Below, piece after piece: positions 3,018 to 42,375 of a DNA stretch of 64,000 nt. The notes under the pieces are model-generated. The model saw only the letters and a program-made list of their open reading frames with translations, had not been told where the DNA came from and ran no database searches. Numbering within the stretch: the first letter of the stretch is position 1; every line of letters starts with the position of its first letter. A program made the translations under genes and the position numbers. Source of the DNA: Abditibacterium sp. (GTDB lineage Bacteria > Armatimonadota > Abditibacteriia > Abditibacteriales > Abditibacteriaceae); contig OZ251992.1 of the NCBI GenBank assembly GCA_965246885.1, positions 3,008,001 through 3,072,000 of the forward strand, read 5' to 3'.

Positions 3018-3040
3018 CTCTGGGTTAATTTCATAGCGCG

Positions 3041-3159
3041 CCCTTTTGGTTGGGGAAGTCCGGTGCAAGTCCGGCGCTGTCCCGCAACGGTAATGACTTT
3101 GGTCTAAGCCCGATTACCAACCCCAAGGCCGTCACAAAATCCCTGCGCGAGAACAGGGA
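3041..3159 (+). ncRNA. Cobalamin (B12) riboswitch, compact class-II-like
   Basis: GGTTGGGGAAGTCCGGTGCAAGTCCGGCGCTGTCCCGCAACGGTAA...AAGCCCGATTACCAACC: GGGAA box, CCGG-T-loop-CCGG stem, TCCCGC loop, closing GGTTGG/CCAACC stem. A downstream hairpin TCCCTG-CGCGAGAA-CAGGGA (3140-3159) is positioned for the kissing loop. Confidence 0.88.
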
Positions 3160-3279: not shown

Positions 3280-4122
3280 ATGTCACCCACATCCAACCAC
3301 CGCCCGCAACCGGGCCGGAGCGCTTTCACGCTCATAGAAATCCTCGTCGTCGTGGCGATTATCGCCCTGCTCGCCGCCATCCTGTTCCCGGCCTTTGCCC
3401 GCGCGAGGGAAAACGCGCGCCGCGCCAGTTGCCAATCGAACCTCAAGCAAATCGGCCTCGCGTGGATCCAATACTCGCAGGACTACGACGAGAAAATCAT
3501 GCGCTTCTCGACGGGCGCCGATTCCGCTTCCGTCGCTACGCCCGCCAATCCCATCAACTACTGGTGGGGCGGCTACGACGGCACCACCTTCCGCGCCGCC
3601 AACGGCCTCTTGCAACCTTATCTCAAGAGCGACCAAGTGCGCGCTTGCCCCTCGTTCACCGCCGCGCCCGCCAACGCCTACGAAGGCTCGACGGGCTACG
3701 CTTACAACGTCGACACCCTCGCGCCCACCGATTATCCGGCGCCCTCTTTCTCGCCGGTTCCGCGCACCGCCAGCCTTGCCTCGATTCAGGACACCGCCCA
3801 AACCGTCGCGTTCGCGGATTCGGCCCACTTGCGGAACTACGATCCCACCACCTTTGCGTCAATTTCGCCCGCCGTCTTCGAGGCCAATACCTTTCTAAGC
3901 GCGCCTAAAGCGAACTACCCCACTTTCGCGGCCCGTCACCTCGAAACCGGCAATGTCCTGTGGTGCGATGGGCACGTCAAAGCGATGCACCCGTTCTATC
4001 GCACTGGGAGCGTGGGTTTTGGCGCCTATTCTGCTGACGAGCTTCGCTCTTACAACCTCGGCGACATAGACCGCGACGGCGACCTTTCGACCGACGAACT
4101 CTTCAACGGCACCGGCAAGTAA
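3280..4122 (+). CDS. Prepilin-type N-terminal cleavage/methylation protein, DUF1559 family, with H-X9-DG domain
   Basis: [61 protein letters not shown] motif; C-terminal [12 protein letters not shown] loop. Confidence 0.92.
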
Positions 4123-4203
4123 ACAGCGCGACACTTGGGGGCGCCCGAAGACGCACTCAGGTGGCGAAACCGAACGAGGGGGCGCGTGATACTTCCGGGC
4201 ATC

Positions 4204-5415
4204 ATGCGCCCATTGCTCCTTCTCGTCCTGCTCGTCGCGTTGCCTCTGGGCGCGCGGGCGTGTCTCAACGACCGCGACTCCGACGCGCTCGCGGTTCAGA
4301 ACGGCCGCGTTCCCGATGCGTTGCGCGTCGTTAGTGGGCGCTTCGAGCGCAACCCGCCGCGCTTTTATCAAATGCGAATCGCGCGGGTGAGCGGCGAACT
4401 CAAAGTCCATCCGCGCGACTTCGGCTTATACGACGACCTCGCCGTCGCGCACGACAAGTTGGGCGACGACGAGGCGGCCCTGCGCGTCATGGCCGCCAAG
4501 CGCGCCCAGTTGCCCGCCTACAACGCGCACGACAAGGCCAACAAAGAAGCGTGGTATCGCTTCTTCGCCAACGACGGCACCTTCCGCGCCCACCTCTTCT
4601 TGCACGCGGGCGCCCCAGTCGCGGGGTTGGGCGAGATGAAACAAGCGCGGGCGGAGATCGCGCGCGCCCTGCGCATCAAGCCCAACGCCCACTTCGGGCG
4701 CGAGAAGTATCAGGTGGCGGTGATGGATTGGGTGGTGCTCGCCAAAACGGGCAAGACCGAGTTGTCGCTGGGCGACTGGATGCAAGCGCGCTTCAAATGG
4801 GACGGCGGCTACGACTGGCCAAGGCAACCGCTCGCACCGCAAAATCAAGAGGCCGCGCAAGGGTTGGCGGGCCTCATCGTGTTGGGCGCGGCGTGGCGCA
4901 GCCCCGACGTGTTCGACGCCCTCGCAACGGCCTTGGAAGCGCGCCCGACCATCGCGCTGTCGTATCTGGCGCGGCACCGGAGTCAGGAACTGCTCGCAGG
5001 CGGCGCCAAATCTCTTCAGCCCAAAGCCGTTCTGCCGTTGGACGAGTACTGGCTCCGCGACCGGATGGATCGCGGCCTGAACGACACCAACGCCAAGACC
5101 CTCGACGCCTTTTACCCGAAGCTGCGCGCCGATGCCGAAGCGTGGCAAACCCGCCGCGCGGCATGGATGAACGCCCGCTTTGTGCGCGGCGAGCATCCCG
5201 ATACCGATGCCGACTTCTGGCGGGGTTGGCAAGATAGCGCGCCCATGTCGCTCGATGTCGCGTGGTATGACACCCGCGCCGAAACTCAGCGCATAATGCG
5301 CAACGCGAAGTTCATCGCATTGTCAACGGTGTTGGGGGTTCCCACACTGCTTTTGGTCGCCTGCTTCTGGTTCGCGCGCCGTCGCCGCGCCAAGCGCCAG
5401 AACGCTCCCACTTAA
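4204..5415 (+). CDS. Secreted, C-terminally anchored hypothetical protein (TPR-like helices)
   Basis: Signal peptide MRPLLLLVLLVALPLGARA, YDDLAVAHDKLG helix, C-terminal TM segment followed by RRRRAKR. Confidence 0.8.
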   Translation: MRPLLLLVLLVALPLGARACLNDRDSDALAVQNGRVPDALRVVSGRFERNPPRFYQMRIARVSGELKVHPRDFGLYDDLAVAHDKLGDDEAALRVMAAKRAQLPAYNAHDKANKEAWYRFFANDGTFRAHLFLHAGAPVAGLGEMKQARAEIARALRIKPNAHFGREKYQVAVMDWVVLAKTGKTELSLGDWMQARFKWDGGYDWPRQPLAPQNQEAAQGLAGLIVLGAAWRSPDVFDALATALEARPTIALSYLARHRSQELLAGGAKSLQPKAVLPLDEYWLRDRMDRGLNDTNAKTLDAFYPKLRADAEAWQTRRAAWMNARFVRGEHPDTDADFWRGWQDSAPMSLDVAWYDTRAETQRIMRNAKFIALSTVLGVPTLLLVACFWFARRRRAKRQNAPT

Positions 5416-11747: not shown

Positions 11748-12932
11748 ATGAACCACGAACACCTGTTCCCGCTTTTGGATGCCTTCGCCATCGAAGTGCC
11801 GTCGTGGGGTTTCGCAGATACGGGCACGCGCTTTGGCAAGTTCCACCAGAGCGCCGCCGCCGCAACCATCGAAGAGAAAATCGAGGACGCGAGCGAAGTC
11901 CACCGCCTGACCGGGGCCGCGCCGACGATGGCGGTTCACGTCGAGTGGGATTTCAAACCCGGCCAAGACCCGCAAGAGGTCGCGCGCATGGCGACCGAAG
12001 CGGGCATCCGCATCGGCAGCATCAACCCCAACCTGTTCCAAGACCAAGATTATAAATACGGCTCCGCGTGTTCGCCGGTCGAGGCGGCGCGCGCCAAAGC
12101 GAACGAGCATCTGGCGCGTTGCCTCGCAATCGGGGCAGCGACGGGGTCGGAGTTCCTGAGTTTGTGGTTCGCCGACGGCACCAACTACCCCGGACAAGAC
12201 GACATCATCGCGCGCAAGCGGCGCATGGAAAGCGCCTTGAAGCAGTGGCACGACGCCATGCCGGACGGCATGACGATGCTCGTCGAATACAAGCCGTTTG
12301 AACCCGCCTTCTACCATACCGACATCGCCGACTGGGGCATGGCCGCGCATTTCGCCCGCAAAGCGGGAAGCAACGCGAAGGTCTTGGTGGACACCGGACA
12401 CCATCTTCCCGGCGCCAACATCGAACACATCGTCGCGTTTCTGCTCGATGAGGGGATGCTGGGCGGCTTCCATTTCAACGACCGCAAATACGCCGACGAC
12501 GACCTCACGCTCGGCTCCATTGACCCCTACGCCGTCTTCCGCATCTTCCACGAAATCCGCCAAGCCGCCGCGCGCGGCACGGACGTTTCGGGCGTCGCCT
12601 ACATGATAGACCAAAGCCACAACCTCAAGCCCAAGGTCGAAGCCATGCTGCAAACCGTCGTCTCTGCGCAGGAGCTTTACCTCAAAGCGTGCCTCGTTGA
12701 CCGCGACAAACTCGCGCACTTCCAAGCCCGCACCGACATCGTGGGCGCCGAAGAAACCCTGCGCGCCGCCTTCTATGCCGACACCACGCCGGTTCTATCC
12801 GCGTGGCGCGAGTCGAAAGGCTTGCCCGCCGACCCGCTCGCCGCGTATCGGTCGAGCGACTACGCCACCCGCCGCGCGAGTGAGCGCACCGCGCGCCGCC
12901 CCGACGCGGGCAAGGGCACGAGCTACGCCTGA
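11748..12932 (+). CDS. rhaI: L-rhamnose isomerase (RhaI type, xylose-isomerase-like TIM barrel)
   Basis: EVPSWGFADTGTRF, WFADGTNYPGQ, EYKPFEP, DTGHH and FHFNDRKYADDDL; adjacent to the aldolase/SDR fusion. Confidence 0.88.
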   Translation: MNHEHLFPLLDAFAIEVPSWGFADTGTRFGKFHQSAAAATIEEKIEDASEVHRLTGAAPTMAVHVEWDFKPGQDPQEVARMATEAGIRIGSINPNLFQDQDYKYGSACSPVEAARAKANEHLARCLAIGAATGSEFLSLWFADGTNYPGQDDIIARKRRMESALKQWHDAMPDGMTMLVEYKPFEPAFYHTDIADWGMAAHFARKAGSNAKVLVDTGHHLPGANIEHIVAFLLDEGMLGGFHFNDRKYADDDLTLGSIDPYAVFRIFHEIRQAAARGTDVSGVAYMIDQSHNLKPKVEAMLQTVVSAQELYLKACLVDRDKLAHFQARTDIVGAEETLRAAFYADTTPVLSAWRESKGLPADPLAAYRSSDYATRRASERTARRPDAGKGTSYA

Positions 12933-12953
12933 CCCAATCACACTCCCAACGCC

Positions 12954-15134
12954 ATGCAATTCCAACACGTTTCCTACCTCTGGGACGACGCGCACGCCGA
13001 CTCGCTCGACGCTGTGGGCCGCCTCATTTATCGCTCGAACATCCTCGGCGCCGACGGGCGTATCACCAATACCGGCGGCGGCAACACGAGCGCCAAGCTG
13101 CCCGAAACCGACCCGTTGACGGGCGAGAAGACGACCGTCATGTGGGTCAAAGGGAGCGGCGGCGACCTACGCACCGCCACGCGCGAGAACTTTTCCAGCC
13201 TCTACCAAGACAAAGTGATGGCGCTCCAAACGCTCTACGCCGGGAAGGATGGGCGCGGGGCGAAGACCGTCGCGGAAGATGAGATGGTCGGGCTTTACAG
13301 CCACACGACCTTCAACCTCAACCCGCGCGCCAGCAGCATTGACACCCCGCTCCATGCTTTCGTGCCGCACGCACACGTTGACCACACGCACCCCAACGCG
13401 GTCATTGCCCTCGCCGCGAGCAAAGACGGCGAGGCGCTCACGCGCGCGATTTACGGCGACGACGTGATTTGGACGCCTTGGCAACGCCCCGGCTTTGAGC
13501 TTGGTTTGATTTTGCAGGACATCGTGCGCGCGCACCCCAACGCGAAGGGCGTCATTTTGGGCGGGCACGGCCTCATCAACTGGGACGAGAACGACAAGGC
13601 ATGCTACGAACTCTCGCTTGAACTCATTGAAAAGGCCGCGCAGTTCATCGAAGCCCGCGACAAGGGCGCGGCGACTTTCGGCGGGCAAAAGTTCGAGACC
13701 TTGGACTCAGACAAACAGCGCGAAACGCTGTGCGCCCTTTTGCCTTGGCTGCGCGGGCAAGTGTCGGGACACAAGCGGCTCATCGGAACCGTCCAGTCGG
13801 ACGAGCGGACGTTGCGCTTCGTCAACTCGCACGACGCCGCGCGTTTGGCGGAGCTTGGCACATCCTGCCCCGACCACTTCCTGCGCACCAAAATCAAGCC
13901 ACTTTATGCCGAGTGGAACCCGCAAACCGAGGAGTTGGACGCGCTAAAAACCAAAATTAGCGCCGGACTCGCCGCCTATCGCGCGGACTACGCCGCCTAT
14001 TACGCGGCCTGCAAGCGCGACGATTCCCCGGCCATGCGCGACCCAAACCCGACCGTGATTCTCATCCCCGGCCTAGGCATGATCGCGTGGGGCAAGGACA
14101 AATCGGAATCGCGCGTCACGGCGGAGTTTTACGGCTGCGCCATCGAAGTTATGCGCGGCGCCGAAGCGATTTCGACCTACACCGCCTTGCCGCAACAGGA
14201 AGCCTTCGACATCGAGTATTGGCTCTTAGAAGAAGCGAAATTGAAGCGGATGCCGCCCGAAAAGTCGCTCGCGCGCCAAGTCGTCATGGTCATTGGCGCT
14301 GGAAGCGGCATCGGGCGCGAAGTCGCGCTGCGAATCGCTCCCGAAGGCGCGCATATCGTCTCCGTTGACCTCAACGCCGAAGCCGCCCAAAAGACCGCCG
14401 ACGAACTGAGCGCCAAGCTGGGCCAAGGCATCGGCGTCGCGGGAACGGGCATTAGCGGAAGCGGCCCCGCCATTGGCCTAAGCGCCAACATCACCGACCG
14501 CGCTTCCATCCAACACGCCTTGGACGACGCCGTTCTCGCGTATGGCGGACTCGATGCCATTGCGGTAACGGCGGGCATTTTCGTCGCGCCCGACACGTCC
14601 GGCCACATCCCCGACGACAAGTGGGCCTTGACGTTTGCCATCAACGTCACCGGTAGCTACCTCGTCGCCGACGAAGCCTTCAACCGCGTCCTCAAGCCGC
14701 AAGGTCTCAAAAGCCGCATCGTGCTAACCACCTCGGCCAACGCGGTCGTGTCGAAAAAAGGCTCGCTCGCGTACGATACGAGCAAAGCCGCCGCGAACCA
14801 TCTCGTGCGCGAACTCGCCGTCGAACTCAGCCCGCTCGTGCGCGTCAACGCCGTCGCGCCCGCAACGGTCGTCAAAGGCAGCACCATGTTCCCCCGCGAC
14901 CGCGTCGTTTCCAGCCTCGCCAAATACGACATCGCCTACACCGAGTCGGAATCCGACGACGACCTGCGCGACAAGTTAGCCCGCTTCTACGCCGAGCGCA
15001 CCCTCACCAAAGCCCCCATCGAACCCAGCGACCAAGCCGAAGCGTTCTACATCCTCCTCACCGAGCAACTCAGCAAAACCACCGGCCAAATCATCAGCGT
15101 AGACGGCGGTCTGCACGAGGCATTCTTGCGGTAG
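12954..15134 (+). CDS. Bifunctional rhamnulose-1-phosphate aldolase / short-chain dehydrogenase
   Basis: GGGNTSAK, HVDHTHP, CPDHFLRTK and EYWLLEEAK (class II aldolase); GAGSGIG and YDTSK (SDR). Confidence 0.93.
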   Translation: MQFQHVSYLWDDAHADSLDAVGRLIYRSNILGADGRITNTGGGNTSAKLPETDPLTGEKTTVMWVKGSGGDLRTATRENFSSLYQDKVMALQTLYAGKDGRGAKTVAEDEMVGLYSHTTFNLNPRASSIDTPLHAFVPHAHVDHTHPNAVIALAASKDGEALTRAIYGDDVIWTPWQRPGFELGLILQDIVRAHPNAKGVILGGHGLINWDENDKACYELSLELIEKAAQFIEARDKGAATFGGQKFETLDSDKQRETLCALLPWLRGQVSGHKRLIGTVQSDERTLRFVNSHDAARLAELGTSCPDHFLRTKIKPLYAEWNPQTEELDALKTKISAGLAAYRADYAAYYAACKRDDSPAMRDPNPTVILIPGLGMIAWGKDKSESRVTAEFYGCAIEVMRGAEAISTYTALPQQEAFDIEYWLLEEAKLKRMPPEKSLARQVVMVIGAGSGIGREVALRIAPEGAHIVSVDLNAEAAQKTADELSAKLGQGIGVAGTGISGSGPAIGLSANITDRASIQHALDDAVLAYGGLDAIAVTAGIFVAPDTSGHIPDDKWALTFAINVTGSYLVADEAFNRVLKPQGLKSRIVLTTSANAVVSKKGSLAYDTSKAAANHLVRELAVELSPLVRVNAVAPATVVKGSTMFPRDRVVSSLAKYDIAYTESESDDDLRDKLARFYAERTLTKAPIEPSDQAEAFYILLTEQLSKTTGQIISVDGGLHEAFLR

Positions 15135-19727: not shown

Positions 19728-21409
19728 ATGTCCGAATTGCCCACCAAAGAAACGCAGCAAGTCGAATTCAAAAGCGATTTGAAGAAATTGTCCGACCGCG
19801 AACTCATGGGGACAGTTGTCTGCTTGGCCAACAGCGAGGGAGGCGATATTTACTTGGGCGTCGAAGATGACGGGACACCGACCGGGCTTCACCGCGAACA
19901 CCAAAACGTCGAAACGTTGGCCGCATTCGTCGCCAACCTCACCCTCCCGCCCGTGCCGGTGCGCGTGGAAAAGCTGAACGAGGCCGGAGTAAGCGTGGCC
20001 AAAATCAGCGTGCCTCGCTCTCAAACGGTGGTGGCAACCAGCGAAGGATTATCGCTCCGGCGACGTCTTAAAGCCGACGGCACACCGGAGTGCGTGCCCT
20101 TCCCTCCGCACGAACACCCGTCGCGTCAGAGTCGAATTAGCGCCCTCGACGTTTCGCTCCAAGCAGTCGCACAGGCGACGTTAGACGATTTAGACCCACT
20201 CGAACGGGCGCGACTGCGCGCGGTTATCGAACGCTACAAAGGCGAAAAGGCGCTTCTTGGGTTGGACGATGAAGAGTTAAATGGCGTGTTGGAGTTTACG
20301 ACGACATTTGAAGGGCGCACCGTTCCCACGCTGTGCGGCTTGCTGTTGCTGGGTAAAGAGGCTTCGCTTCGTAGGTTGGTGCCTACCCACGAAGTCGCGT
20401 TTCAAGTGCTGGATGAAACTTCCGTCAAGACCAACTATTTCTCCCGCGCCCCACTTTTGCGGGTTTTTGAAGCGATTTATGAGAACTCGTTTTTGCAAAT
20501 CGAGCGCGACGACGATGAGATTCAAGTCGGGATGTTCCGCGTGGCAGTTCCAGCCTACGAGCGGAGCGTGTTTCGAGAAGCCTTTGTGAACGCTCTTGTC
20601 CACCGCGACTTTTCGCGCATGGGCGCGGTTCATATCCAAGCGCAAATCGGCAGCGAGCCGCATCTTTCGCTGTCCAACCCCGGTGGTTTTGTCGAGGGCG
20701 TAAGCGTCTCGAACATTCTCGACACCCCGCCACGCCCGCGCAACCCCCGGCTCGCGGACGTTCTCAAACGCATCGGGCTGGCCGAGCGCACAGGGCGAGG
20801 AGTTGATCTCATCTTTTCCGGCGTGTTACGCTACGGACGCCCCGCGCCCGATTATAGCGCTCCAACGATGCGGGGGTTGTGGTGCGTCTGTCGGGAATTC
20901 AGCCCGACCTACCGTTTCTCCAACTAGGGTTGGAAGAGGAGCAACGTTTGGGGCACGGTCTGCCGCTCCCGATGCTGTTGGCGCTTTCCGCCTTACACCA
21001 CGAGCGCCGTTTGACGTGCGAGCAGATGGCGCCTCACCTTCAAAAATCCTCCAATGTCGCCCGCGCGACACTCGAAAAGTTGGTAGAGCAAGGGCTGGTC
21101 GAAGCACACAATGACGGCGCCGAGCGCGCTTACACCCTCAGTCGGCAAATCTATCGGCGTTTGGGCCAAAGCGCGCATTACATCCGGCAAACAGCTTCCG
21201 GCCCATTGGAACATCACGAACTGGTCAGAAAATTTGTCGCCGCAAACGGTTCCATCAAGCGAGCGCAAGTCGTCGAACTTTGCCGCGTCGAACCCAAACA
21301 AGCGACCCAGTTGCTCCTGATGATGGAAGCCCAACATGTCCTCCAACGCCGGGGAGCGCGACGCGGAACAAGCTACTTTCCGGGAAAGGCTTGGGACGAA
21401 GCCTCCTAA
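19728..21409 (+). pseudogene. Schlafen/AlbA_2 + HATPase_c_4 + HTH protein, frameshifted near 20858
   Basis: ETQQVEFKSD..LANSEGGDIYLG (AlbA_2), REAFVNALVHRD, PRNPRLA. The frame breaks at PAPDYS; one added base restores DYS-RSNDAGVVVRLSG into the 20879..21409 ORF. Confidence 0.82.
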
Positions 21410-30509: not shown

Positions 30510-33170
30510 TTAGTTCAGCTTTATTGCTCCTTTCCACACCCCCGCGACTGCCTCGAAGTCGCTCCCATCCGGCAATTCCACGCGCGCGCTTGTGTTCGGC
30601 GGGACGACGAAGCGGTAGTTAAACTGGCCGTCTGCCAGTTCCCACGCGCTTTCGATGCGGCCATGCGGGGTGTCGAGGTGGGCTTTGGCGTGGGTAAGTT
30701 CGCCGCCCGGTCGGGGCTTCAGGAGGAAGCGTTGATAACCGGGGATGTGGGGGTCGAGGGCGATTCCGGCGACGTAACCATACAGCCACGCGCCGACGGC
30801 GCCGTAAGCATAGTGGTTGAAGGAGTTCATGCCCGCGTCCTGAAAGCCCCGGTCGTGCGTCCAGCCGTCCCAGCGCTCCCAAATGGTTGTCGCGCCTTGC
30901 GTGACGGCGTATAACCAACTCGGCCACTGCTTCTGGTGAAGCAGTATATACGCCGTGTCAAGGTGCCCCTCGCGCGTCAGCACGCCGTTGATGTAGGGCG
31001 AACCCACAAAGCCGGTCGAGAGTTTTCCGCCGCGCTTTTGGATTTCCGCCACCAACTCCGCCGCCAATTGGGGGCGCAATTCGTCCGGCACAAGATTAAA
31101 CTCTAAGGCCAGCAGATAGGGCGTTTGATACGGCGGACTGAGCTTTCCGGCGGGGGTCACGTAGCGCGCGCAAAAGGCCGCTTTGACGCTCTCGAAAAGC
31201 GCGGCGTATTTAGCGGCGTCCTCGGCGTGGCCCAACACGCCCGCGATTTGGTGCATTAGGTCGGCGGCGTGGGCGTAAAACGCCGTCCCGATGAGGTCGT
31301 TGGGCGTGCCGCCGAAGGTATCGCCTGAGCCATCAATGGCCAGCCAATCGCCAAAGCCCCGAAAGTAGCCGCAGCCATCGTAGCAACGGATGCTGTCTTT
31401 CGCCGTGCTCGTGAGGTACTCGACGAAGCGCGTCATCACGTCGTAGTTTTCCGCCAGCACCTTCACATCCCCCGTCGCGCGGTAGACCGTCCAAGGACAA
31501 ATCAGCGCGGCGTCGGCCCATGCGGGGCCGCCATCGGCGGACTCGCAGCGCCCCGTTGCGGCGTCCACCTCGTCGGTGCCCACGACTTGGATGTCGGGCA
31601 CCACGCAAGGGATGCAACCCGCTTTGGTTTGCGCGTCGCGCACTTGGCGCAGCCACTCGGCCCAGAAGCCGCGCGAGTCGCGGTTCCACAGCGCGGTTTC
31701 ACAAAACGCTTGGGCGTCGCCCGTCCAGCCCAAACGCTCGTCGCGCTGCGGGCAGTCGGTCGGAATATCGAGCGAGTTGCCTCTCCAACCCCAATCTATG
31801 TTGCTTTGCAGTTGGTTGATGAGCGGGTCAGAGCACTCGAAGTCGCCCGTGCGCGCTTGCTCGGTTCCCATCACCACGCCGGTCACGAACTCAAGCGGCG
31901 GCACTTCGCCTGCCTTGAGTGCGGGGGTCAGCCCCACCACTTCGACAAAGCGGAAGCCGTGAAAGGTGAACATCGGCTCCCACTCCTGCAAGTTCCCATC
32001 GGTCGTCACGACATCCAGTTGCCGCGCGGAGCGCAGGTTGGCCGTGTAAATGTGCCCTTCCGTTGCGTTCGGGCCGCCCACAAGGGTTTCGGCAAAGCGC
32101 AAACGTAGCGTCAAGCCCGGTCGCACGCTTTGAAGCGCCGCGAAGTTGAGCCGCGCGCGGCCAATCATGTTCTGCCCCAAGTCGAACACCCACACCGGCC
32201 CCAAGTTATCCACATTGCCCGGCGACTGCACCGCGATGGGGCGTAGTTCCTGCGTCGCGCGAATCGGCGGCGCGACCGAAGCGCGCAAATGCAGCCCATC
32301 GGGAAGCGGCGCCGCGTCCACGCGCCCCACGTCTCGCCACTCTTGGCGCGCGTCGAACGCTTCACCTTGCTGCAAGTCCGCGCCCAGCATCGGCCCATAC
32401 GCCGCCGCCCACTTCTCATCGGACGCGACCACCTCGCGCGAGCCGTCCTCGAACTCGATCTCCAATTGCGCAAGTAACGCCGGACGGTCGTGGTAAGTGC
32501 CGCGCGCGTTCCAGCCGATGTGTCCAACCGCCCAGCCATCGCCCAACAGCGCGCCGAGCGTGTTGTCGCCTTGCTGCAATTGGGCGGTTACGTCGTAGGT
32601 TTGAAAGCGGAGCGAATAACGGTAGTCCGTCCAACCGGGCGCCAGTTCATCGTTGCCGACGCGCGTGCCGTTCAAATCCATGCGATACACGCCCACCGCC
32701 GACGCATACAAGCGCGCTGCTTTGACTGGCTTATCGAGGTGAAAGCCCCGCGTCAAACGGGGAACGGGCGGCACCGTATACGGCCCACCCACAAGCGGCG
32801 CGCTGATGAGTTGCGCTCCCCAATCCGCCATTTCAAAGAGTCCGGTTTCAAACCACGTCACCTCGCTTTGCGTTGTCGCGCCCGTTTCGTCCTCGATTTC
32901 CACGCGCCAATAGACCCGCTCCCGACTATAAAGCGGCGCCCCACCATATTCGATGAATGCCGTCTGGTTCGAGGCGACGCGGCCCGAATCCCATAGCTCT
33001 GGCACGCCGAAGCCATCGGGCGAACTCGATGCCATCAAGCGATACGCCACTTGCCGCGCGCCCTCGCGCGGCGTATCGAGGCGCCACGACAAACGCGGAC
33101 GGAGTTCGGTTAAACCGAGCGGGCAAGAGAAACCTTCACATTTCAAAGCGACAACGGATGTTTGGTTCAT
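30510..33170 (-). CDS. Alpha-L-rhamnosidase (GH78)
   Basis: PTDCPQRDERLGWTGD, FGDWL, GATTIWERW, SFNHYAYG. Confidence 0.95.
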   Translation of the reverse strand: MNQTSVVALKCEGFSCPLGLTELRPRLSWRLDTPREGARQVAYRLMASSSPDGFGVPELWDSGRVASNQTAFIEYGGAPLYSRERVYWRVEIEDETGATTQSEVTWFETGLFEMADWGAQLISAPLVGGPYTVPPVPRLTRGFHLDKPVKAARLYASAVGVYRMDLNGTRVGNDELAPGWTDYRYSLRFQTYDVTAQLQQGDNTLGALLGDGWAVGHIGWNARGTYHDRPALLAQLEIEFEDGSREVVASDEKWAAAYGPMLGADLQQGEAFDARQEWRDVGRVDAAPLPDGLHLRASVAPPIRATQELRPIAVQSPGNVDNLGPVWVFDLGQNMIGRARLNFAALQSVRPGLTLRLRFAETLVGGPNATEGHIYTANLRSARQLDVVTTDGNLQEWEPMFTFHGFRFVEVVGLTPALKAGEVPPLEFVTGVVMGTEQARTGDFECSDPLINQLQSNIDWGWRGNSLDIPTDCPQRDERLGWTGDAQAFCETALWNRDSRGFWAEWLRQVRDAQTKAGCIPCVVPDIQVVGTDEVDAATGRCESADGGPAWADAALICPWTVYRATGDVKVLAENYDVMTRFVEYLTSTAKDSIRCYDGCGYFRGFGDWLAIDGSGDTFGGTPNDLIGTAFYAHAADLMHQIAGVLGHAEDAAKYAALFESVKAAFCARYVTPAGKLSPPYQTPYLLALEFNLVPDELRPQLAAELVAEIQKRGGKLSTGFVGSPYINGVLTREGHLDTAYILLHQKQWPSWLYAVTQGATTIWERWDGWTHDRGFQDAGMNSFNHYAYGAVGAWLYGYVAGIALDPHIPGYQRFLLKPRPGGELTHAKAHLDTPHGRIESAWELADGQFNYRFVVPPNTSARVELPDGSDFEAVAGVWKGAIKLN

Positions 33171-35797: not shown

Positions 35798-38997
<3,200 letters not shown>

Positions 38998-39141: not shown

Positions 39142-39175
39142 TAGAATGAAGGGGAGATAAATTTTTACCGCTCAA
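39142..39175 (+). promoter_or_regulatory. Putative -10 box and LacI-family operator upstream of the LacI gene
   Basis: TAGAAT (39142-39147) and imperfect palindrome TTTACCGCTCAA (39164-39175) with the central CG of LacI-family sites. Confidence 0.5.
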
Positions 39176-39198
39176 GAAATTGGCGGATACGTCCCATC

Positions 39199-40233
39199 AT
39201 GACAACGCTGCAAGAGATCGCCCAGCGCGCGGGGGTGTCGAAGATGACGGTTTCCAATGTTCTCAATAACCGCAACAAGGAGAACTGGCCCTCGACCGCG
39301 TCACGGGCGCAGGAGATTCGCGCCTTGGCCGAGCAGATGGGCTACCGACCCAACTTGGCGGCCAAAGCGGTGGTGACGGGGAAGTTCGGGGCGATTGGCA
39401 TCTTGTCGCCCAAAAGTCTGCCGAGCGCGCCGCACGATGGCATCGCGTGGGGTCTGTAGGCGGAGGCCGAAGACAAAGGCTTTCATCTGGTGGTGGGTTC
39501 GGTTCCCGACGCGCGGCTTTGCAATGCGACGGAAGTGCCCCGCCTGTTGAGCGACTGGATGTGCGATGGGTTCGTCATCAACCACATCCACAATCCGCCG
39601 CCGCGTTTGGGCGAAATCATCGCGCGTCATCGTCTGCCCGCGATGTGGCTCAACGTCGAGCAACCCAGCGACTGCGCGCACCCCGACGATTTTGGCGGCG
39701 CCGTCCAAGCGACCCGGCATCTGTTGCAACTGGGGCACACGCGCATCTGCTACTTCCATCCCAGCGGTTCACCCCACTACAGCGCGAGTGCGCGGCGGCG
39801 CGGCTTTGAGCGCGCCATGAACAACGCCGGTCTTCCAGCGTGGGTGGAAGAAATCGAGAGCAACGCGAACTCTGCCTCTTATGTGGCCAGAAGCCGAGAA
39901 CTGTTGCGCCTGTCAGAGCGCCCCTCGGCGATTTTGTGCTACGAGTTATGGCTGGCGCAACCCGTTTGGGCCGCCGCCCTGCACGAAGGCTTGCGCGTGC
40001 CAGAAGACCTTTCGCTCATCACGTTTCACGAAAAAGTCTTCGACGGTTTGGGCGCCCCGTTCTCCACGATGCAAATCCCTTTCGTCGAGATGGCGCGCGA
40101 GGCAGTGCGGGGAGTAGTGGAAAAAATCGCCGACCCGTCGTTGGTAATCCCCACCCGCGTGCTACTGTATCCCGACCCGCAAGGCGAAATCTGCCTTCCG
40201 CCGTCACCGACTTACGCTTCCAACGTGCGTTAA
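39199..40233 (+). pseudogene. LacI-family transcriptional regulator with premature in-frame TAG
   Basis: TTLQEIAQRAGVSKMTVSNVLN HTH and GYRPN; TAG at 39457-39459; the same frame continues through LLQLGHTRI and GLRVPEDLSL to 40233. Confidence 0.88.
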
Positions 40234-40272
40234 CGTTGTTCGTTTACAGCCAACACTTTGGCCAGCTATACT

Positions 40273-40398
40273 ATGTCACATCTTGCAAATGTCCGCTCCG
40301 GGCGGAACGCGTTCACCCTCATAGAATTATCGGTAGTTGTCGCCATCATTGCTATTTTGGCAGCCATCTTCGCTATTTTGGCAGCTATCTTCCGATAA
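40273..40398 (+). pseudogene. Truncated prepilin-type (DUF1559-like) gene remnant
   Basis: Manual translation MSHLANVRSGRNA|FTLIELSVVVAIIAILAAIFAILAAIFR*, containing a 21-bp duplication. Confidence 0.8.
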
Positions 40399-40399
40399 T

Positions 40400-40582
40400 A
40401 TTGATAAATCGACGACGCTGGGCGCTTTCTCCGCACCTATCACGCTCGCCGCCAACACGAATTACACCATCAAGATGGAATATAAAGAACTCAGCGGGCA
40501 GGCTTTTGCCAAGTTGCTCTGGCAAAAGCCGGGAGCCTCGACCGCTGTCCTTGTGCCCAAAGCGCAGTTGTTTCCTTTGTAA
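40400..40582 (+). pseudogene. C-terminal fragment of a PA14-like domain
   Basis: ITLAANTNYTIKMEYKELSGQAFAKLLWQKPGASTAVLVPKAQLFPL*, with no plausible start codon. Confidence 0.7.
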
Positions 40583-40602
40583 AAAGAGCAGTTTCGCTTC
40601 GT

Positions 40603-42375
40603 ATGAACACCTTCAAAGCAATCTACTGGCGTGCATTGGGGCGCGGCGTTTTCCTCCTATCCATGCCGTTGGCGAGCGCCATCGCATCGCCTGCCCAAAC
40701 GCTGCAAAACGGCAGTTTGGAGGGGGCTTACACCGCCGCGTCGGGTTCGGCAACCGCCGCCGTTTCCGGGTTGGTGACGCCCAGTTGGACGGACAACACG
40801 ACTTGGGCCAGTGGGGTCAACCTTTCCTATGAGCGCGACGCCAGCACCGTGCATGGCGGCTCGGCAAGCCAGAAAATCACCGTCAACTCCGGCTTCGCGC
40901 AGTTCCTAACGTGGAGCGCCAGCACCCAAACTTTCTCGGTCTGGCTCAAGGCGCAGTCGCCGATGTGGGTGGATGTGACTCTGCGCCAAGCTGACGCGCC
41001 TTACACGAATTACGCGGGCCACGCCGTCCGACTGACACCCACATGGACGCAAGTTTCGCTGAGCGGCCAAACACCTGCGGTGGGCGGTGTCATCCTCATC
41101 AAAACTGCGGGCACCGGAACATTGTGGGTGGACGACGCGGCGCTGACGCAAAGCGCGCACGGGCTGGCGCAAATGTTACGTCCGCCCTCGGCAACGCCGA
41201 TTCCCCCGACCTACTTTGGCCTCAACGCCAATCATCTGCACGATTCGCCGGGATACTCGTGGCCCGCCGTCCCCTTCGGTGCGTTTCGCAACTGGGATTC
41301 GGGCGTCATCTGGTCAACTATTGAAACCGCGCGTGGGGTTTACAACTGGGCTGACTTAGATAAAGATGTCGCGGGGGCACAGGCCAAAGGCCAGAAATAT
41401 CTCTTCAACTTCGCGGGCATACCGCGCTGGGCGGCACCAAGCGGGCCACAAACCTATGTGGGCACTTCGGCGGCGCCCGACGATCTCCAAGATTTGCGCG
41501 ACTTCGTGCGCGCCATCGCCACGCGCTACAAGGGCCGCATCGAAGCCTACGAGGTGTGGAACGAACCCGACCTGAACGACTTCTACTCCGGCACGCCCGC
41601 GCAGTTGGCGGCAGTCGAACTGACCATCAAGGAAGAGTTGCGCGCCGCCGACCCAAAGGCACTTCTGGTGGCTCCGCCGCTCGCGGGCGCCGATAACGCG
41701 GGTTCCCTTTCCTTTTTGGAAGCCTACCTCGTGGCGGGTGGCGGTAAGAACTGCGATGTCTTCGCCTATCATTCTTACGACCCACCGGAAACTCAACCCG
41801 ACTCCACGCGCGCCGTCCACAATCTTCTGGCGACTTATGGCTTTGGTGGCAAGCCCGTGTGGGTGACGGAGCGCGGCCTAATTCGGGGCACCTTGCCCGC
41901 CTCGGAGGGAGCGAGTTTCGTCGGACGCTCGTATCTACTTGGGTGGGCGACAGGCGTGAGGCGCCAATACTGGTATGCTTACGACAACGAGACCTACTCC
42001 GGCCTCGACCAGCAAAGCGCGGACGGCAAGACCCGCGACCCCGCGCAACTGGGCGCCGATGGCGTCGCCTACGAACAAATCCAAAAATGGCTGGTCGGAG
42101 CGAAGATGCTCTCGTGCGGCGTGGACAACAACAGCACTTGGACGTGCGTCGTGCAGGATGGCGCAGGCAATAAAGGCTACATCGTGTGGAGCACGCAAGG
42201 CCGGGCTGACTTCTCTGTGCCCACGATATGGAAAGCGACGACCTACCGCGACTTGGCGGGCAACGCCGCTCCTGTTACCCGAAACTCCATTGCTATAGGC
42301 CCATCTCCCATTGAGTTGCTGCCCACAAAAGTTGTTGTCCGCACAAAAGTCACCCGCCGCAAAGAGAAACAGTAA
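40603..42375 (+). CDS. Secreted clan GH-A glycoside hydrolase (GH39-like) with N-terminal CBM-like domain
   Basis: Signal peptide, LQNGSLE..LWVDDA module, acid/base YEVWNEPD, nucleophile VWVTERG. Confidence 0.85.
   Translation: MNTFKAIYWRALGRGVFLLSMPLASAIASPAQTLQNGSLEGAYTAASGSATAAVSGLVTPSWTDNTTWASGVNLSYERDASTVHGGSASQKITVNSGFAQFLTWSASTQTFSVWLKAQSPMWVDVTLRQADAPYTNYAGHAVRLTPTWTQVSLSGQTPAVGGVILIKTAGTGTLWVDDAALTQSAHGLAQMLRPPSATPIPPTYFGLNANHLHDSPGYSWPAVPFGAFRNWDSGVIWSTIETARGVYNWADLDKDVAGAQAKGQKYLFNFAGIPRWAAPSGPQTYVGTSAAPDDLQDLRDFVRAIATRYKGRIEAYEVWNEPDLNDFYSGTPAQLAAVELTIKEELRAADPKALLVAPPLAGADNAGSLSFLEAYLVAGGGKNCDVFAYHSYDPPETQPDSTRAVHNLLATYGFGGKPVWVTERGLIRGTLPASEGASFVGRSYLLGWATGVRRQYWYAYDNETYSGLDQQSADGKTRDPAQLGADGVAYEQIQKWLVGAKMLSCGVDNNSTWTCVVQDGAGNKGYIVWSTQGRADFSVPTIWKATTYRDLAGNAAPVTRNSIAIGPSPIELLPTKVVVRTKVTRRKEKQ

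Follow-up and report, generated by a model that had tools for sequence, protein, structure and literature searches.

What is the role of a pilin gene that sits where a sugar transporter would be expected? The question is raised by a locus at positions 39142-42375 of a 64,000-nucleotide stretch of Abditibacterium sp. DNA (contig OZ251992.1; the whole stretch is referred to here as the window), in which a LacI-type regulator, a prepilin N-terminus, a PA14-like piece and a GH39-like enzyme follow one another on the forward strand (Table 1). An initial annotation proposed that the prepilin gene fills the transporter slot and that, with a second copy at 3280, it belongs to a general nutrient acquisition system in which many pilin-like adaptors share one pilus machine. 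Here we report that the locus represents, in a decayed state, a common module composed of a regulator, a DUF1559 pilin and carbohydrate-active genes. In this bacterium and its relatives, dozens of pilus-like proteins are found in slots usual for outer-membrane importers of sugars, vitamins B12 and B1, and nickel, and these positions suggest a previously undescribed pilus-based capture. The whole explanation, namely that ligand-specific DUF1559 pilins serve nutrient uptake in place of TonB-dependent receptors (TBDRs), has in our estimate a probability of roughly 0.6, given gene context and predicted fold; the interest of the flagged locus is merely that of a fossil of this module.

The order of the parts was as first described when the coordinates were re-derived, but three of the four parts are broken, which had been overlooked. 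The LacI gene encodes both a helix-turn-helix (HTH) and a ligand-binding domain, but an in-frame TAG at 39457-39459 (codon 87) splits them, leaving an 86-aa HTH instead of a one-chain repressor. TAG is a normal stop in the genome containing the window (it ends 428 of the 2153 called genes of at least 200 aa), and the aligned region around its position is open, with no stop, in ten LacI homologs; read-through or recoding was therefore rejected and the TAG is a nonsense lesion. The prepilin stub carries a class III signal with glutamate at position +5 (E+5; 28.7 bits with PF07963 and 29.1 bits with TIGR02532, both above cutoff) and the motif AFTLIELSVVVAIIAILAAIF at 40309, and a 21-bp tandem duplication (40350-40391) within its helix is followed by a stop. 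Profile search revealed neither a DUF1559 body nor a C-terminal H-X9-DG motif in the stub, which is a remnant and not a gene. Near 40392-40400 it joins the PA14-like piece, which has neither a start codon nor a Pfam match. The DNA of this piece is 72% identical to C1:944034-943863 of an intact PA14 gene, and its translation is 69% identical (C1:944034-943861) to the C-terminal part of the corresponding protein (C1:943855-944613; PF07691), which sits in a regulator-pilin cluster of its own with carbohydrate-active enzymes (CAZymes). A prepilin start followed by an out-of-frame PA14 tail is therefore a deletion scar. A nonsense change truncated the repressor, a deletion brought the beginning of the pilin gene up against the tail of a PA14 gene, and the enzyme was spared. 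Contigs of two public runs (two samples of one study, one of them possibly the source of the assembly; contigs lose rare variants) show 0 differences where they cross the TAG and the join, and an assembly error is consequently unsupported. The scanned genes of the locus include no transporter gene, susC-susD pair or TBDR, in agreement with the initial annotation. Its claim of a prepilin gene in the transporter slot cannot be demonstrated at this locus, since only a stub of that gene is left and the lost segment may have been of any length and content. An intact orthologous locus was looked for in relatives and in named genomes and none was found. A second decayed regulator-pilin module was observed elsewhere in the genome, with a C-terminal DUF1559 fragment (C1:1010883-1011038, E 4.6e-6) directly after a regulator (1010373-1010870); more orphan DUF1559 fragments lie at C1:316051 and C1:2877802.

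The intact module is frequent in the same genome (3.55 Mb, 92.7% complete), which has 60 intact DUF1559/H-X9-DG pilin genes (56 found with a motif that required E+5, 4 extra by profile) and 25 PF13377 regulators, that of the flagged locus included. Adjacency was defined as an intact DUF1559 gene at most 700 bp downstream on the same strand. It was found for 15 of the other 24 regulators (0.14 expected, maximum 3 in 10,000 shuffles; the decayed module at C1:1010883 was left out), compared to a background of 45 in 2951 called genes (1.5%) with a DUF1559 gene next downstream. The count of DUF1559 genes beside regulators that the initial annotation had proposed thus gave a strong enrichment. Behind these regulator-DUF1559 pairs lie mostly CAZymes and carbohydrate-binding modules (CBMs). 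We scanned 69 of the 199 called genes of the loci with profiles, mostly same-strand downstream, and the families found were glycoside hydrolases (GH26, GH39, GH29-like, GH5, GH44, GH71, GH10, GH13, GH9 and GH2) and pectate-lyase-like, BNR, CBM and PA14 families; none of the 69 belonged to ABC, MFS, SSS or TBDR families. The genome has 14 ABC permease and 5 SBP_bac_1 matches, none within 20 kb of the 15 loci, and a genome profile search for PF00593 (TBDR) gave no match. The same adjacency was seen in six relatives for 22 regulator loci out of the 60 that scored best among 90 matches (G009 7/15, G014 7/15, G027 4/8, G028 2/8, G030 2/8, G026 0/6). A conventional transporter, which would have spoken against the initial proposal, was found directly behind none of the nine closest LacI homologs in relatives. 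An ABC ATPase 5 kb behind a DUF1559 gene in L220 was rejected as a module part; a cyclase and an integrase intervene.

Several other features were observed at DUF1559 loci. Two near-identical tandem genes (C1:143783 and C1:144675) indicate recent duplication. Genes for PhyH-family dioxygenases recur beside DUF1559 genes and CAZymes (L149, L156, L161 and L359; 7 matches), and a LacI-DUF1559-fucosidase cluster ends with a DUF6785/DUF6784 protein (L161:1341-3410) that is possibly an inner-membrane carrier. A DUF1559 gene pair is divergent from ribD in L368 of the genome containing the window, and apparently also in L217 of G010; no flavin mononucleotide (FMN) riboswitch was found in L368.

The pilin gene at 3280 is intact, lies directly downstream of a cobalamin riboswitch and is the single member of the B12-linked clade in its genome. 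Of the two prepilin-like genes claimed within 64 kb, this one stood and the other proved to be a stub. As a signal the pair fails, about 1.1 copies being expected in such a stretch from 60 copies in 3.55 Mb; the neighbours are informative, the count is not. Directly behind the B12-linked pilin, 4135-5415 encodes a 426-aa protein with no Pfam match. The genome's single Cobalamin riboswitch match, single thiamine pyrophosphate (TPP) riboswitch match and single nikR each stand ahead of a DUF1559 gene, and an Rfam search near 21 other DUF1559 loci found no riboswitch besides the TPP one.

These regulated positions were compared in 31 genomes of the phylum, including the one containing the window. 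PF07596 was present in 31/31, and PF00593 matches ranged from 0 to 6 per relative. At least 46 RF00174 matches were found and 45 were read: DUF1559 came first behind the riboswitch at 18 loci, and a BtuB-like TBDR at 16. The remaining 11 were ribonucleotide reductase (2), MetE (2, and 1 similar, unscanned), BtuF (2), an unknown gene followed by DUF1559 (1), a below-cutoff match (1) and contig ends (2). All eight genomes with no TBDR match carry a riboswitch-DUF1559 locus; among the 15 genomes with no riboswitch-TBDR locus, riboswitch-DUF1559 is seen in 13 (in one of them DUF1559 is the second gene), and the other 2 gave no clear assignment. btuF lies behind DUF1559 in six genomes (G006, G015, G020, G022, G024 and G029, the last with cobU, cobT and cobS) and behind the TBDR in three (G006, G007 and G013). 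DUF1559 is first in 5 of 17 TPP riboswitch loci, the G027 copy being accompanied by thiamine pyrophosphokinase (TPK) and an SSS transporter. As btuF and SSS transporters are kept downstream, the slot held by DUF1559 can be refined: it is probably that of the outer-membrane receptor and not that of the binding protein.

A direct exchange was seen at nikR, where the following gene (20 loci in 18 genomes) is DUF1559 in five cases, TBDR in four, and other genes or contig ends in the rest. A convergent NicO-like gene with 82-84% identity is common to the genome containing the window (G000), G003 and G012, which makes the nikR locus orthologous in the three. It has an intact DUF1559 gene in G000 and G003; in G012 (L389/L401, G012:C1:1296000-1307000), a frameshifted DUF1559 N-terminal remnant is followed by TBDR, ExbB, ExbD and TonB. 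This one case suggests that a TBDR cassette displaced the pilin. The G012 TonB, used as a query, had no match in G000. The two NicO-like genes run convergently to nikR-DUF1559 and do not belong to its operon; one of them scores below the Pfam cutoff. The nikR-linked pilin of G000 (L371:6330-7241, C1:1949228) was also observed to have 9 His in its head (median 4), and an H-H-E motif and conserved Cys common to the G003 and G010 copies are candidate metal ligands. Overall, gene context shows separate DUF1559 subfamilies co-regulated, by position, with glycan, B12, thiamine and nickel use, and at the B12 and nikR loci the exchange of slots shows these pilins in the place of TBDRs while the inner carriers stay.

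The proteins themselves combine a constant helix with a variable head: median identity between paralogs is 83% in the N-terminal 55 residues (helix) and 26% in the heads. In a tree made with a quick method, from which rows below 180 aa were dropped, the B12-linked copies of nine families formed one clade (20 rows, SH-aLRT 99), with an invariant Trp inside a Y/F-W-W/F-G motif, and the TPP-linked copies, among them the one at C1:852191, formed a separate clade of 5 (SH-aLRT 96). B12-linked heads from the Planctomycetes-Verrucomicrobia-Chlamydiae (PVC) group were assigned to the B12 clade in 6/7 cases vs. 0/31 controls, in a biased comparison with 1 PVC control, and FastTree did not place them in one clade. 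DUF1559 paralogs of the genome containing the window grouped with copies from named Abditibacterium, in keeping with the phylum label Abditibacteriota. In the class of a Victivallales genome, DUF1559 follows 6 of 30 B12-riboswitch loci, 3 of these below the Rfam cutoff. The structure prediction called for in the initial annotation was run on the 3280 protein (266-aa mature form). The AlphaFold2 model (pLDDT 90.6) has a 51-residue first helix (4-54) and a beta-rich head, and the 21 structures that match it best all come from pilins or pseudopilins (the first with Z 5.5, rmsd 3.4 and 121 aligned residues), ComP being the second (Z 4.4, rmsd 4.0, 99 aligned). The matches cover approximately 120 of the 266 residues, and much of the head is therefore an insertion with no match. 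The predicted fold is that of a type IV pilin with a much enlarged head, and the family as a whole is predicted to consist of type IV pilins in which the N-terminal helix is conserved and the large head varies. No chain with a two-lobed solute-binding fold was among the matches listed, and an ESM Atlas search returned hypothetical clusters only. The protein has no PF00593/PF07715 match; its likeness to TBDRs is one of gene position only.

A pilus to which such proteins could belong is encoded in the genome. A type IVa (T4a) core locus has pilB, pilT, pilC, a single pilD and four minor pilins; a separate secretin locus has what appear to be pilNOP-like genes, and LpxC is present. The proposal of one shared machine is not established: there is one complete core locus, yet orphan PilB/PilC/PilT paralogues, 6 secretin matches and Tad parts were found as well. 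Three tandem secretin genes with N-domains (L409:3655-8285) were observed, with no other pilus genes adjoining. A motif search among the 3010 called genes turned up no distinct small major pilin that carries a class III motif; the bulk of the pilus may consist of DUF1559 subunits. The idea of general pilin-linked nutrient acquisition thus withstands both refuting conditions set in the initial annotation, by the regulator enrichment and by the lack of a transporter behind the closest LacI homologs, with the single machine left as a possibility.

According to the passages cited, ordinary porins have a limit of about 600 Da (PMC5394234). Because B12 is larger, a diderm with BtuF-like proteins, which this genome has, and with no BtuB needs another outer step. 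In the explanation that we favour, PilD would process the DUF1559 prepilins, which would assemble as interchangeable subunits of a retractile T4a-type filament. The pilin head would bind the nutrient, PilT retraction would carry it via a secretin to the periplasm, and BtuF/ABC, SSS or NicO-type carriers would take over there. We consider it likely that DUF1559 pilins have a role in nutrient capture, at its outer step. Import driven by retraction is a more tentative proposal, to which we give somewhat less than an even chance. It is possible, with similar reservation, that Armatimonadota/Abditibacteriota, and probably parts of PVC, share a general TonB-independent import with one retractile filament, tens to hundreds of interchangeable DUF1559 receptors, each for a single glycan, vitamin or metal and under a regulator of its own, and a secretin.

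A number of observations weigh against this explanation. Its support comes from gene context and a predicted fold, and the locus that raised the question is a pseudogene. The assembly is 92.7% complete, and a TBDR could lie outside it. Nine of the 24 regulators have no directly following intact DUF1559 copy. By our tally of neighbours, 33 of the 60 intact copies stand in a clear regulator, CAZyme, riboswitch or transporter context, a single one lies within the pilus core locus, and the other 26 stand beside ambiguous, unrelated or housekeeping genes. Best hits of regulator and head agree for just 10 of the 41 pairs (mean 3.7 and maximum 9 under permutation; the pairs are non-independent), which weighs against a tight one-pilin-one-substrate code. 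Five of the nine closest LacI homologs, including the closest (41%), have no neighbouring DUF1559, nor has any of 6 near-full-length orthologs of the window enzyme in named genomes (a LacI-type gene is upstream in 1/6); the module is therefore dispensable. Five of the 16 genomes with riboswitch-TBDR have riboswitch-DUF1559 too, so TBDR and DUF1559 are not strictly exclusive. The genomes compared are kin and not independent, and in Planctomycetota DUF1559 is next in 1 of 33 B12-riboswitch loci. The structural Z-scores are modest, and Foldseek against PDB gave no match at E≤0.001. Ala replaces Gly before the cleavage site (-1) in 37/56 copies, as it likewise does in four core-locus pilins.

Among other explanations, the one that survives best makes the proteins periplasmic or inner-membrane receptors or shuttles: the helix would only tether the head to the inner membrane or to a short endopilus, and the head would bind a ligand that entered by another route and pass it to ABC/SSS carriers, or sense it. 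Pfam formerly classed the family as solute-binding proteins (PMC2754498, in the passages seen), Tuwongella proteins carrying the two domains occurred chiefly in the detergent-extracted fractions S2 and S3, as the cited part of PMC8567305 reports, and the membership of DUF1559 proteins in filaments is itself a prediction. We nevertheless regard this explanation as unlikely: btuF is retained beside the B12-clade gene in six genomes, the exchange is with an outer-membrane receptor and, in G012, with a whole TonB motor, and E+5 is present in 56/56 motif-found copies, although the search motif demanded it.

Somewhat less likely again is a role in adhesion only, in which lectin-like pilins hold the cell to particles or polymers digested by co-expressed enzymes and nothing is imported. 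It would leave the dedicated B12-, TPP- and NikR-controlled clades and the exchange with TBDRs unexplained, despite the fact that secreted CAZymes are the strongest association and that, in the passages cited, MUL2 of Akkermansiaceae is interpreted as attachment (PMC13174399) and type IV pili help Fimbriiglobus adhere to chitin (PMC11131199). Secretion adaptors, each pilin being a pseudopilus tip that recognises and exports a large enzyme encoded alongside, would explain DUF1559 genes directly upstream of secreted enzymes, the sub-cutoff matches to GspG/GspH models and the three tandem secretins, and a planctomycete type II secretion system is up-regulated on fucoidan in the cited part of PMC11685898; however, the B12, TPP and nikR copies lie beside carriers or salvage enzymes or alone, not beside exoenzymes, and the enzymes are often found with no pilin, which makes this explanation improbable. 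That a prolific family merely ends up behind regulators as a passenger, with no nutrient function, agrees with the 26 copies with no clear nutrient context and with the stubs and fragments but is very improbable and largely refuted by 15/24 vs. 1.5%, by 22/60 in relatives and by clades that keep the same riboswitch phylum-wide.

The spared enzyme of the flagged locus has a CBM4-like N-domain and a clan GH-A barrel, presumably after a signal-peptide-like start. Its homologs are 38-59% identical across most of the length; in the 30 relatives the best matches are partial (approximately 22-38% identity). PslG was the best PDB match of its profile (E 5.9e-18, across the barrel and C-domain), GH39 beta-xylosidases being among the best matches too. 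Compared to PslG/GH39, the barrel, the C-domain and both catalytic glutamates align: E321 and E423, invariant across 23 sequences, correspond to the PslG acid/base of the NEP motif and to the second Glu. The window enzyme differs by its extra N-terminal domain and by having no match to PF01229, the GH39 model, which is given for several homologs 40-46% identical. Because the repressor is truncated, the enzyme may now be expressed constitutively. The locus is flanked by what we take, from the translations, to be a DNA ligase gene (ending at 38997) and a convergent ftsY-like gene. No transporter was found among the window genes scanned with profiles. Elsewhere in the window, 11748-15134 and 30510-33170 hold isomerase-like and aldolase/SDR fusion genes and a GH78 rhamnosidase, presumably for rhamnose use, and 19728-20927 encodes a Schlafen AlbA_2 + HATPase_c_4 protein.

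Table 1. Features of the window, with the basis of each assignment.
Feature	Position	Strand	Basis or remark
Cobalamin riboswitch	3030..3139	+	RF00174; sole match in the genome
DUF1559/H-X9-DG type IV pilin-like gene, intact	3280..4122	+	N_methyl 27.4, PF07596 53.1, TIGR04294 22.1 bits, all above cutoff
LacI-family regulator	39199..40233	+	PF00356 E 1.5e-12; PF13377 E 6.5e-25; interrupted
Sigma70-like site TTTACA-18-TATACT	40243..40272	+	chance level: 1 found vs. 0.7 expected
DUF1559-type prepilin stub, 41 aa	40273..40398	+	PF07963 E 8.8e-7; TIGR02532
PA14-domain gene 3' end, ~60 last codons	40400..40582	+	other frame than stub
GH39/PslG-like glycoside hydrolase, 590 aa, intact	40603..42375	+	profile, alignment, PDB profile comparison

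The relevance of these pilins lies in how large nutrients cross the outer membrane of diderm polysaccharide degraders with few or no TBDRs. TBDRs such as BtuB, SusC and the nickel and thiamine receptors are a close comparison: DUF1559 pilins have the same regulators, the same position ahead of btuF and the same nutrient range, with direct exchange at the nikR locus, but no beta-barrel or plug, and their energy would come from pilus ATPases. For specific subfamilies the likely ligand can be named from the regulator: B12, thiamine or nickel, or else the glycan on which the CAZyme cluster in question acts. In competence pili, the minor pilin ComP recognises DNA and retraction acts through a secretin; that system has one pilin for one polymer, whereas DUF1559 comprises tens of pilins under separate regulation, for which the solutes would be small.

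Few paralog families in Planctomycetes are larger than DUF1559, and by the present counts the same is true of this phylum. The passages cited describe at least 41 genes per Planctomycetales genome, scattered around the genome (PMC8567305), and 68 paralogs in Planctopirus (PMC10632474), and the family has been termed PVC- or Planctomycete-restricted (PMC4807772, PMC10632474). The architecture (DUF1559/SBP_bac_10, PF07596, with TIGR02532 and TIGR04294) and the large expansion are the same here; compared with those passages, which give no function, the family occurs in 31/31 genomes of another phylum, is linked to LacI, B12, TPP and NikR, and is modelled as a pilin and not as a solute-binding fold. 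Our literature search, which mostly did not cover subscription papers and supplements, where a prior mention is possible, returned no publication that connects DUF1559 with LacI loci, riboswitches, NikR or the replacement of TBDRs. TonB-independent import by pilins, if true, would give DUF1559 a function. In the passages cited, the type IV-like pili of Akkermansia MUL2 are tied to glycan use (PMC13174399); MUL2 is one four-gene locus, and those passages draw no link to DUF1559. Planctomycete fibres from crateriform structures bind dextran, with an uptake system described as uncharacterised (PMC5394234); the passages cited neither name the subunit nor draw a link to DUF1559, which, if the explanation is true, would be a candidate subunit. 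In the Sulfolobus bindosome (Bas), the proteins that bind nutrients carry processing sites of type IV pilins, and PilB/PilC homologs assemble them (cited passages of PMC4371748). Nutrient binding and pilin-type processing signals would be common to both, on the DUF1559 side by prediction. The bindosome subunits, however, are ABC binding proteins at least 4x as large as pilins, and their cell lacks an outer membrane, whereas DUF1559 has a pilin-type head of approximately 200 aa in a diderm, the ABC binding protein being a separate gene. Ligand-capturing type IV filaments are thus already known as a kind, and retraction-driven import of solutes, if true, would be categorically new.

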